A stretch of 64,000 nt of DNA, taken from a virus. Position 1 is the first letter of the stretch. Every line of letters starts with the position of its first letter. The DNA lies in IMG/VR virus record IMGVR_UViG_3300045747_000694, positions 42,165 to 106,164 of that record; one strand, written 5' to 3'. Made by a program: the position numbers and the translations under genes. The notes under the pieces were generated by a model, which had not been told where the DNA came from, did not search any database, and worked only from the letters and a program-made list of their open reading frames with translations. Shown here piece by piece: positions 19,787-20,588 of this stretch.

Positions 19787-20588
19787 CAAGAGCGCCGTGC
19801 TCTTGCCGGTTCGTATGCCCTCTCCAGGTGCAAATGGCCTCCATCTCCCTGGGGCGCTTCTTCTCCTTCTCTTGGGCGCACAGTAGGGCAAGCTGCGATG
19901 GCCATCACCCTCGACCACCATGCATGGGAGAGGGGGATGGATAGGCAGTACACATCGAGCAGTCGAGTACAGCTCAAGACAGCCTGCACGCATCTACATC
20001 GTTCAGACTGTAGGTAGCGTAGCGGCGCCCCGCGAGAGCCTCATGACGAGGAGAGTGAGGCTTCAGGCAGCAGGCCAACTCGTATGCTGGGTACCCAAGA
20101 CCAAGAACAGGTACCCCTCTGAGGTCCATGCGCCATTGGCAGACCAACCAGGGCTCTTCGGCTTGCTCTACATGCTCAGCTGGGCACGAGAGAGGTCATC
20201 ATGAGGGCCATCGCTTGCCCAAGACAGCTTGAAGAGCGCTCATGCATCACCAAGTAGCGAGCCCTCCAGCTTGGGCGCCAGCAAGAGCACTCGAAGAGGC
20301 CCTCGTCTCGCCTATCGTTAGGGCTATCGAGTCGAAGTGCAGCCCGGGTAGAGGGGGGACAGTGGTTACCTAGTTCTGGGCCCCCTTTACAACTTGAGGG
20401 GGTGGGGGACCGGCACGGCCTGAAAGTTCTTGGGGTGGCATACGATTCGGGTACCCCCTGGGGGATGGAATGCGTGCAGGGTGGTCGGTAAGTGTTCGGT
20501 CGAACCTGTCCGGTGTCCCCCGAACACGGGGAAAGGTGTGTGATATGGCCTACACGGTCTTGGCTCGACGTATGCTCCACGAGTCGTC
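19787..20588. other. ~800-bp non-coding divergent intergenic region
   Basis: No ORF with coding-like GC3 on either strand. Visibly lower GC. Lies between diverging - and + transcription units. Confidence 0.6.

Follow-up and report, generated by a model that had tools for sequence, protein, structure and literature searches.

Large phages carry long conserved non-coding regions, the roles of which have mostly not been established. Several types of described element invite comparison with such regions. Invertons are invertible promoters flanked by short inverted repeats, and origins of replication primed by R-loops are represented by ColE1 (RNA II) and by oriF and oriG of phage T4. The GOLLD and ROOL RNAs are frequently encoded next to tRNA genes in phage or prophage DNA, although this adjacency is not a strict criterion. 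Both are large, ornate RNAs, often borne by phages or prophages (Nature 2025, PMC12286853; Weinberg et al. 2017, PMC5737381).

In this work we analysed a stretch of 64,000 nucleotides (the window, 64 kb) from the 153-kb genome of a large, high-GC phage, and focused on a gene-free gap of approximately 860 nt (19731-20588), which we call the hub. It lies between a - strand gene starting at 19730 and an annotated + strand ORF starting at 20589. The hub resembles GOLLD and ROOL in being a phage element of several hundred non-coding nucleotides, in which conserved blocks alternate with variable insertions, and its long-range complementarity could close a large domain. The size of its conserved part, about 650 nt, is fitting, as is the setting, a phage genome in which a tmRNA gene is also present. 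It differs from these classes in that it has no covariance-model match, no tRNA genes nearby and no significant covariation or structure conservation, and in that only three members are known. The whole window was scanned with cmscan against Rfam 15, and at the gathering threshold the tmRNA was the only match. At E <= 10 the region 19400-21000 gave nothing but noise matches to snoRNA and IRES models, and at E <= 5 two related loci (L005 and L008) gave noise only. No tRNA gene was detected in the 64 kb by ARAGORN, whose sole match was the tmRNA, 7.6 kb from the hub. A GOLLD- or ROOL-type RNA, one of the roles listed for this region in an earlier note on the sequence, is refuted by the scans of the window and its relatives, and we give membership in either class next to no chance.

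The GC periodicity of third codon positions is lost from about 19680 to about 20640, and at a fixed threshold this is the longest low-periodicity run of the 64 kb (1050 nt). The runner-up, at 5221-6210, lies within the collagen repeats of a 2026-aa tail-fibre ORF. The gap is likewise empty in the public gene calls for a Logan contig of identical sequence. Substitutions relative to related phages favour none of the three phases (59/57/58 and 81/65/74), and the indels, among which sizes of 1 nt and of roughly 20 nt are present, are not multiples of three. A missed protein-coding gene is thus ruled out by the phase of the substitutions, the lengths of the indels and the absence of GC periodicity. 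The gap is a real non-coding element and the longest truly non-coding run in the window, as the earlier note had proposed from the lack of any ORF with coding-like codon bias. That note had also described the GC content of the region as visibly lower. It is indeed below the mean of the window (0.599 vs 0.639), but not below the values of the genes to the left (0.57-0.66 in 200-nt windows); within the hub it ranges from 0.585 to 0.615 per 200-nt window. The GC skew is +0.22 to +0.25 across 20300-20599, and between 20300 and 20485 there are 71 G and 44 C.

Three versions of the hub were compared, namely those of the window, of a 198-kb contig (loci L002-L006) and of an 18-kb contig (L008). The gap is found at the same syntenic position in both related phages, and the order of a leftward array, a gap of approximately 750-860 nt, one or more rightward genes and again a leftward array is common to all three. 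The genes to the left of the hub are not conserved and have been replaced, while the position of the hub has been kept. Blastn and a three-way alignment delimit a conserved non-coding core of about 650 nt (19850-20485, + strand), which shows no codon-like substitutions, is present in one copy per genome according to nhmmer, and is 78.8% identical to L002 and 69% to L008 (blastn). It is made up of blocks at approximately 19850-19940, 19975-20075, 20105-20175 and 20300-20485, separated by variable or indel-containing segments at approximately 19940-19975, 20080-20109 and 20175-20300. The blocks are 80-100% identical and the flanking stretches 36-48%, which is the level of unalignable DNA. Lack of conservation among relatives had been named in the earlier note as grounds for abandoning its proposal; both the position and the sequence blocks are kept in the three phages. 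The best explanation is that the gap is a lineage-specific functional non-coding module of rare large, high-GC phages.

Several elements of the core deserve mention. A block of 27 nt, GGGGGACAGTGGTTACCTAGTTCTGGG (20354-20380, + strand), is invariant in the three phages and overlaps the most AT-rich 40-mer of the hub, at 20358, the GC content of which is 0.50; only 0.7% of the 40-mers of the window are equally AT-rich. An invariant G-tract, GGGGGTGGGGG (20398-20408, + strand), lies within a G-rich stretch. Near the left end of the core, the polypyrimidine tract TCTTCTCCTTCTCTT (19859-19873, + strand) is rich in C and T in each of the three phages; its - strand is the purine-rich AAGAGAAGGAGAAGA. 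At the variable insertion site (20080-20109, + strand), GGGTACC (20089-20095) forms an inverted repeat with GGTACCC (20110-20116). This segment is deleted in L002, and at the same site a 20-nt unit is tandemly duplicated 2.3 times in L008. The indels and the tandem duplication of the core are confined to a few discrete sites between the blocks, and the peripheral stems of large RNAs behave likewise.

A search of GenBank phage DNA with the hub gave no match. Among isolated phages, the closest reach no more than 32-45% identity, as judged from their AAA-ATPase and ribonucleotide reductase. When IMG/VR was scanned with three proteins of the neighbourhood and with an alignment of two proteins, nothing apart from the 198-kb contig was recovered. 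An 18-mer DNA scan of metagenomes yielded one true relative (L008) and two chance matches; the two 18-mer genome-scan matches were rejected as chance occurrences that fall in an ABC-permease motif from Ilumatobacteraceae. The inverted-repeat pattern described below was scanned for twice, and the only matches (L013 and L014) were likewise due to chance and discarded. Within the 64-kb window the core motifs AGAGGGGG and GGTACCCCTCTGAGG, as well as all 12-mers of the core, recur nowhere else. The heptamer CGTATGC is somewhat enriched in the hub, with 4 of the 8 copies of the window, and these copies are not conserved in the relatives.

The most distinctive feature of the core is a long-range inverted repeat. 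Its 5' arm (19984-20000, + strand) consists of CTGCACGCAT, CTA and CATC, and its 3' arm (20464-20479, + strand) of GATG, GA and ATGCGTGCAG; both arms are invariant in the three phages. The 10-mer of the 5' arm (19984-19993), which is unique in the 64-kb window, is complementary over 10 bp to the 10-mer of the 3' arm (20470-20479), and CATC and GATG add 4 bp beyond a small internal loop. The arms are 476, 457 and 496 nt apart in the three phages, and L008 diverges immediately after the 3' arm, which marks the right end of the three-way conservation. In 400 column shuffles a Watson-Crick stem kept by the three sequences never reached 10 bp, and it reached 9 bp once. The long-range complementarity of the arms therefore exceeds chance and is statistically significant. 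Among the variable cells flanking the 10-bp pairing, 8 of 12 can pair on the + strand when G-U is allowed, and 4 of 12 on the - strand. The invariant arms fit sequence-specific recognition of DNA equally well.

Folding and covariation tests gave little beyond this repeat. The fold of the whole region had a z-score of -1.3 on the + strand and -0.2 on the - strand, and the best local windows of 120 nt reached -3.1 and -3.6. Across the window 2.3% of the 120-nt windows reach z <= -3, so that about 2 would be expected in the 78 tests made, and the local minima of the hub are therefore ordinary. The helices pointed out in the earlier note are found where it placed them, and the z-scores agree with its own estimate that helices of this size could arise by chance. 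Sliding consensus folds of the three sequences gave structure conservation indices of 0.27-0.61 and z-scores of -1.8 to +1.6 over both strands. Compared with column shuffles, the full-length consensus energy was modestly low (z = -3.6 on the - strand and -2.2 on the + strand). RNAalifold counted 31-32 compensated pairs in the three sequences, against 22.9 +/- 4.6 after shuffling (2 of 60 shuffles reached the observed number) and 28 on the - strand; its covariation term was net unfavourable, at +3.8 kcal/mol. A strong count of pairs on the RNAalifold structure itself was dismissed as a circular test, most of the signal being removed by a calibrated null. A shift-tolerant scan for short covarying helices equalled its null.

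Stems of at least 6 bp that pair in all three sequences numbered 34 on the + strand and 6 on the - strand, against 16.5 +/- 6 in shuffles. The excess on the + strand is mostly due to one CT tract (19859-19873), which pairs with many G-runs through G-U pairs. A predicted hairpin, GCCCCCUU/GAGGGGGU, is destroyed in L008 by a change of CCCCC to GGGGC. A three-part pairing noticed earlier, in which GGGCAAGC, GATGG and CCCTC (19886-19912, + strand) face 20203-20220, is present in the window and only partly kept in the relatives. By eye, L008 keeps GGGTC/GACCC and GATGGCC/GGCCATC, and L002 only GGCTG/CAGCC; in our own reading some of the changes are compensatory. Triple matches of 5 bp are as common when the arms are permuted (368 observed, 307 expected), which places this pairing at the level of the null model. 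Over the three sequences the signal for a conserved fold and for covariation is thus at or near chance and is not strand-specific, and these tests neither establish nor reject a new large structured RNA outside the known families.

The boundaries of the hub at 19730 and 20589 hold, and it does separate diverging genes, as first described. The rightward unit comprises only two small genes (20589-20825 and 20851-21204), after which the leftward array resumes at 21311. The first of these genes belongs to a module (20486-20850, + strand) that is shared by the window and L002 and absent from L008. The module contains the hairpin GTGTTCGG...CCGAACAC (20492-20527, + strand), an upstream ORF of 23 codons (20545-20616, + strand), the hairpin CGAGTCG-TCATG-CGACTCG (20580-20598, + strand), three copies of CGAnTCGnCATG (20580-20632, + strand) and a 78-aa ORF (20589-20825, + strand). 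The first hairpin, also singled out in the earlier note, is accordingly common to a single relative (L002). Across 20572-20721 the window and L002 agree at 98-100% of positions in alignment windows of 50 nt. As read from the sequence, the stop codon of the upstream ORF overlaps the ATG at 20613 as ATGA, which suggests translational coupling and a true start at 20613.

The 78-aa protein was found only in the phages of the window and of L002. The sole rightward gene common to the three phages is the 117-aa ORF (20851-21204, + strand), which is conserved only at the N-terminus of its product. For this protein no family match was found, and its AlphaFold model was unusable (pLDDT 34); family searches with the rightward proteins gave no assignment. 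The left-flank protein of 96 aa has no relatives anywhere searched. In the window and in L002, 65 nt separate the end of the core from the upstream ORF at 20545; in L008, 55 nt separate it from the start of the homologue of the 117-aa ORF. This distance of 55-65 nt is thus fixed with or without the 78-aa module, and the core is therefore tied to the rightward unit and not to the genes on its left. A fixed position on the same strand just upstream of an ORF, as expected of a cis-regulatory leader, is seen in the three phages.

At the left edge of the hub lies a promoter-like motif, GGCATAAG (19780-19807, - strand), in which GGCAAG and GGCATAA are separated by 15 nt, approximately 50 nt upstream of the start codon at 19730. 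The window contains 12 copies of the heptamer YTATGCC (TTATGCC or CTATGCC), where 4.3 would be expected, and none of 100 shuffles reached 12. TTATGCC accounts for 10 of these, and 9 of the 10 lie 17-80 nt upstream of - strand genes. The hubs of L002 and L008 carry the same motif at their left edges. We propose this motif as the putative promoter of the leftward small-gene array. A scan of both strands with the sigma-70 consensus detected no promoter, and the two terminator-like matches were within the range of shuffles. Of the functions first suggested for the region, that of a control region is partly supported, by the motif ahead of nine leftward operons and by the fixed spacing between the end of the core and the rightward ORF.

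Our preferred reading, to which we assign a probability of roughly 0.4, is that the core is a leader or non-coding RNA transcribed rightward; a control region acting at the DNA level is nearly as likely. The left ~100 nt of the gap would contain the promoter of the leftward small-gene array. Rightward transcription of the core (19850-20485) would yield either a long leader or a non-coding RNA in its own right, upstream of the only gene or genes in that direction, and the + strand would be the functional one. Acting as an RNA helix, the 10+4-bp pairing of 19984-20000 with 20464-20479 would close a domain of approximately 480 nt in which the best-conserved, G-rich block is located. The likeness to structured 5' leaders and cis-regulatory RNAs lies in the constant distance to the first rightward ORF and, in two of the phages, in an upstream ORF whose stop overlaps the next start, together with hairpins at the start codon. 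The core differs from them in its length, several times that of known leaders, and in that no known aptamer was detected with Rfam. A bolder version appears rather unlikely: the core would be a structured phage RNA of a new, large (~650 nt) class, closed by the invariant long-range helix and with a G-rich conserved domain. It would match GOLLD and ROOL in scale without being related to them, and would occur only in a rare lineage of high-GC phages of 150-200 kb.

The same invariant arms could instead be paired protein-binding sites, for example for DNA looping. The hub would then be an extended divergent promoter/operator in which the blocks are sites of regulators that set the expression of the leftward early array and of the rightward genes, and a transcript would have no function of its own. 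We consider this reading almost as probable as the preferred one. Like divergent early promoter/operator regions, the hub lies between opposite units, and its left-edge motif is common to nine other leftward operons; the arms are invariant rather than covarying, and the fold and covariation signal favours neither strand. The 27-nt block is the AT-richest spot of the hub and in our reading contains a weak TTACCT-N16-TACAAC, and the short palindromes GATGGCCATC, GGTTACC, GGGTACCC and CCCCCTGGGGG are present, although they are not kept in all three phages. The same phage has a second long conserved divergent intergenic region. However, a core of 650 nt far exceeds the typical length of phage operator regions, and it shares no motif with the other intergenic regions of this phage or with any other part of the 64 kb. 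The strong excess of G over C in the best-conserved block would be meaningless for double-stranded sites, and no DNA-binding protein was identified beside the hub. The 70-aa protein had only a sub-threshold match to FaeA (E = 0.038), and its model (pLDDT 79) had no significant fold match in the PDB (best E 1.8), HicB N-terminal domains being reached at a TM of only 0.45-0.47.

The hub can also be read as a replication origin, possibly one in which a rightward transcript crossing the G-rich block remains paired with its template and primes DNA synthesis. As at the R-loop origins of ColE1 and T4, G-clusters with a positive GC skew lie on the non-template strand of the putative transcript, downstream of a possible promoter and in a conserved non-coding region, here the longest of the window. 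The copy number of the 20-nt unit differs among the relatives, and over the 64 kb of the 153-kb genome the cumulative GC skew reaches a shallow minimum some kilobases rightward of the hub (about 23-24 kb), with no clear switch of sign at the hub itself. Against an origin, which had been among the roles first suggested and which is not supported, no 40-nt stretch of the hub falls below a GC of 0.50, so that an AT-rich unwinding element is lacking. Iterons were not detected in the version of the window, where no repeat family exceeds three copies and the only one with three is the 12-mer at the beginning of the 78-aa gene. The 73 proteins of the window yielded no initiator, primase or helicase domain, the genes beside the hub have no family assignment, and the recognisable genes of DNA metabolism are 30-40 kb away. 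We consider an origin improbable. Still less probable is an invertible or mobile element, in which the inverted 10-mers would delimit a 500-bp promoter switch (inverton) or a miniature transposable element. The resemblance is that a conserved inverted repeat of 10-14 bp flanks a segment of 457-496 bp (~480 bp in general terms) between divergent genes. Yet no integrase, resolvase, invertase or other recombinase Pfam domain was found at E <= 1e-3 among the 73 proteins of the window, which covers 64 kb of the 153-kb genome. The seven assemblies (window, L001-L005 and L008) are collinear in a single orientation and none breaks at the arms, which as a comparison of assemblies only is a weak test. 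The element is single-copy in each genome and has no second occurrence in the window, no target-site duplication can be seen beside the arms, and conservation runs ~130 nt to the left of the left arm. A functionless spacer, or the remnants of decayed genes, would agree with the chance level of the window's helices and with the sub-segments 19731-19850 and 20175-20300, which are essentially unalignable between the window and its relatives. For the core this reading is contradicted by blocks of 80-100% identity with 27 invariant nucleotides, where the neighbouring proteins of these phages are only about 69% identical, and by the constancy of position next to replaced genes. We regard it as very unlikely overall; it may hold for the two variable sub-segments.

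The finding is solid but modest, the family having three known members. The hub is now delimited well enough to be tested: its boundaries are defined, it contains an invariant block of 27 nt, and its long-range complementarity has statistical support. Amid leftward genes of early type it is linked to the only genes that run rightward, and L008 provides a natural variant without the 78-aa module. If it acts as RNA, a new large phage RNA is added; if it acts at the DNA level, it represents a control region of unusual length in which the paired sites lie far apart. The GGCATAAG motif, through its recurrence, offers a starting point for work on the promoters of these uncultured phages. The second long divergent intergenic region mentioned above is located at 13632-14080, so that extended regulatory DNA may simply be usual in this phage.

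The window has a GC content of 63.9% and comes from a large tailed-phage genome encoding, among others, a 2026-aa collagen-repeat tail fibre, a class II ribonucleotide reductase, a DNA ligase, an AAA ATPase, a vault-like (MVP shoulder) protein and a tmRNA. The nearest isolated phages show protein identities of only 32-45%. Third-codon-position GC periodicity, which is 0.9 or more in the flanking genes, is lost from about 19680 to 20640, and public gene calls place no gene in 19731-20588, hereafter the hub. As proposed in the earlier note, this is the longest stretch without coding signal in the 64 kb, measured as a run of low GC periodicity at a fixed threshold. 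The second-longest low-periodicity run lies within the tail-fibre ORF (1625-7705, + strand; C-terminal endosialidase-chaperone domain), whose collagen triple-helix repeats, especially at 5221-6210, remove codon periodicity and look like non-coding sequence. The lower GC content also described there was found (0.599 versus 0.639 for the window), but it is no lower than in the genes on the left. Likewise, the hub does lie between a - strand gene, with its start at 19730, and a + strand unit, but this unit consists of two small genes only (20589-20825 and 20851-21204), and - strand genes resume at 21311. Substitutions relative to the related phages are spread equally over the three codon phases and indels are of 1 nt or about 20 nt; the hub is therefore not protein-coding.

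The 96-aa protein of the left flank, whose recorded source is a 153,172-bp JGI contig, is an orphan for which no relatives were found. A 14.7-kb Logan contig is 100% identical to window positions 11778-26512. For the rightward 117/137-aa protein one relative was found, present on a 198-kb JGI/IMG-VR contig and three further assemblies of the same phage (L002-L006). A third phage, represented by the 18-kb contig L008, came to light when DNA was scanned with an 18-mer taken from the most conserved block of the hub. The other four contigs matching this 18-mer (L009 934-951, L010 1253-1270, L011 457-474 and L012 5769-5786) were rejected as chance matches without flanking similarity. These exact matches to the invariant-block 18-mer lie in Ilumatobacteraceae MAGs, where the adjoining conserved sequence resembles a transporter permease gene, and in a repeat-rich metagenome contig.

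The same order is found in all three phage genomes: leftward genes in an array, then about 750-860 nt free of genes, then one or more rightward genes, and finally leftward genes again. Between the window and L002 the gap is conserved, whereas the genes directly to its left are not. Identity reaches 78.8% over 19862-20969 with L002, within the 70-89% seen for conserved coding modules of these two phages, and 69% over 19859-20434 with L008; a neighbouring protein that is among the best conserved shows 69% identity. Conservation is concentrated in blocks at 19850-19940, 19975-20075, 20105-20175 and 20300-20485, where 50-nt windows mostly show 65-90% identity to L002, and 27 nt at 20354-20380 are invariant in all three phages. 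The segments between blocks are indel-prone or unalignable. At one such site L002 has a deletion, the window carries an extra GGGTACC...GGTACCC inverted repeat, and L008 (747-793) has 2.3 tandem copies of the 20-nt unit CCCCTCTACCCAAACAGCAC. Searches with nhmmer found exactly one hub copy per genome. The hub is a real, conserved, single-copy, lineage-specific non-coding module.

Its right-hand limit is indicated by L008, which lacks window positions 20486-20850 and leads from the conserved core directly into a homologue of the 117-aa gene, so that the core ends at about 20485. The distance from the core end to the first rightward ORF is 55-65 nt in every genome. The segment absent from L008 contains a GTGTTCGG/CCGAACAC hairpin, a 23-codon upstream ORF, a start-codon hairpin, the 78-aa gene and, in the upstream ORF region (20545-20632), three repeats of CGAnTCGnCATG. 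It is 98-100% identical in L002 over the 50-nt windows spanning 20572-20721, versus about 69% for the neighbouring proteins, and recent exchange instead of constraint could account for this. The upstream ORF has an AAAGG Shine-Dalgarno sequence, and its stop codon TGA overlaps an ATG at 20613 (ATGA) that shares the frame of the 78-aa ORF; the ATG at 20589 lies in the loop of a perfect 7-bp hairpin (CGAGTCG/CGACTCG). Family searches with the rightward proteins found no family. The model of the 70-aa protein was confident (pLDDT 79), showing a small beta-beta-alpha-alpha-beta domain without significant match in the PDB; that of the 117-aa protein was unusable.

Evidence for RNA structure was sought with three sequences only. 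The two helices singled out in the earlier note, the GTGTTCGG/CCGAACAC hairpin and a pairing of 19886-19912 with 20203-20220, are present at the coordinates given there, and the suspicion voiced there that they could arise by chance was borne out. The second appears by eye partly compensated in L008 and L002, but a shift-tolerant scan for short covarying helices gave the same result as a permuted-arm null. A further suggestion, membership in the GOLLD or ROOL RNAs, was refuted. Folding of the whole region gave z = -1.3 (+ strand) and -0.2 (- strand). Locally, the lowest values were z = -3.1 to -3.6, in windows around 19870-20080 on the + strand; 2.3% of 120-nt windows across the whole window have z of -3 or below, and about 2 are therefore expected in the 78 fold tests made. 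Consensus folds in sliding windows of 150 columns on both strands were not above chance (structure conservation index 0.27-0.61; z from -1.8 to +1.6). The full-length consensus energy gave z = -2.2 (+ strand) and -3.6 (- strand) against a mononucleotide column shuffle, a null that flatters the real sequence. The covariation term of the RNAalifold structure is net unfavourable, and a predicted C-run/G-run hairpin is lost in L008. The apparent success of this structure in a count of its compensated pairs is circular; the identical procedure yielded 31-32 such pairs for the real alignment versus 22.9 +/- 4.6 for shuffled ones (the real value was reached in 2/60), and 28 on the - strand. Stems conserved in all three phages number 34 on the + strand and 6 on the - strand (16.5 +/- 6 in shuffles), and most of those on the + strand involve a single CT tract pairing with several G-runs via G-U pairs.

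One long-range complementarity beats chance. CTGCACGCAT (19984-19993) and ATGCGTGCAG (20470-20479) each occur once in the 64 kb and do not vary among the three phages. They are perfectly complementary to each other, and the pairing is extended by CATC/GATG beyond a small internal loop. The arms are separated by 476, 457 and 496 nt, and the 3' arm forms the right limit of three-way conservation. When alignment columns were permuted within conservation classes, a three-way-conserved Watson-Crick stem of 10 bp occurred in none of 400 shuffles and one of 9 bp in a single shuffle.

The left edge of the hub carries a different signal. TTATGCC (GGCATAA on the - strand) occurs ten times in the window, and together with CTATGCC 12 times versus 4.3 expected, a number matched by 0/100 shuffles. 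Nine copies lie 17-80 nt upstream of leftward start codons, usually with an xGCAAG another about 15-17 nt upstream; copies of GGCATAA(G) are at 13668, 13991, 15781, 17077, 18204, 19780, 36669, 58652 and 62817 (+ strand coordinates), and none was seen upstream of rightward operons in the window. The hub copy (19780-19786), 50 nt before the gene starting at 19730, is the sole hub sequence common to other intergenic regions, and L002 and L008 also have the motif at this edge. We infer that it is a candidate promoter of the leftward small-gene arrays, conserved in the relatives. A second long divergent region, with about 450 nt free of genes (13632-14080), between a leftward 53-aa gene and a rightward GGDEF gene, contains two copies and lies inside a segment 78% identical to L002. 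A consensus sigma-70 scan found no promoter, and two terminator-like matches were within shuffle expectation. The hub's 40-mer richest in AT (GC 0.50; only 0.7% of window 40-mers are equally AT-rich) overlaps the invariant 27-nt block, which could hold a rightward promoter, TTACCT-N16-TACAAC, a weak match by eye.

We tentatively favour, with a probability of roughly 0.4, an RNA transcribed rightward, either a leader or a non-coding RNA, in which the invariant long-range helix closes the main domain. This preference is based on the position of the core, strand skew, blocky conservation and the one significant complementarity, and not on a demonstrated structure. The hub has a putative leftward promoter at its edge, and its core of about 650 nt is tied to the rightward unit; a rightward transcript of the core would serve as a leader or a separate non-coding RNA. 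A control region acting only as DNA is possible and nearly as likely, and is favoured by the recurrence before leftward genes of the promoter-like motif found at the left edge.

The remaining explanations are less likely than either of these. A replication origin is doubtful, as the hub has neither an AT-rich unwinding element nor iterons, there is no clear GC-skew switch in this 64-kb window of a larger genome, and none of the 73 window proteins scanned has an initiator, helicase or primase domain. An inverton or mobile element is very improbable; site-specific recombinase domains are likewise absent from the 73 proteins, and the region of the inverted repeat is collinear in seven of seven assemblies, although assembled contigs provide a weak test. 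Equally remote, for this conserved module, is a functionless spacer.

Several other genes of the window were recorded. A full-length tmRNA lies at 11774-12142 on the - strand (Rfam 105 bits, E = 6e-40; tag peptide ANEPMFAQQLAAA according to ARAGORN), and no tRNA genes were found within the 64 kb. The 417-aa protein at 26239-27492 (- strand) matches a PHROG 'transposase' family (E = 1e-19) and no Pfam or NCBIfam model; its gene, 87.7% identical to L002 at the nucleotide level, is among the best conserved. The phage-encoded GGDEF diguanylate cyclase (14081-14926, + strand) is kept in a relative, and a response-regulator receiver domain was found among the window proteins. Further matches among the 73 ORFs were to Hemerythrin, ExoX-like C-terminal domain, PNKP phosphatase, DUF2997 and DUF1257. 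One ORF matches the Acb2/Tad1 hairpin domain (E = 1.6e-10), known from anti-CBASS and anti-Thoeris nucleotide sponges. An 881-aa protein (30687-33332, - strand) contains Major Vault Protein shoulder and repeat domains (E = 2.5e-27), which is unusual for a phage, and its gene is 89% identical in nucleotide sequence to the copy of a related phage.
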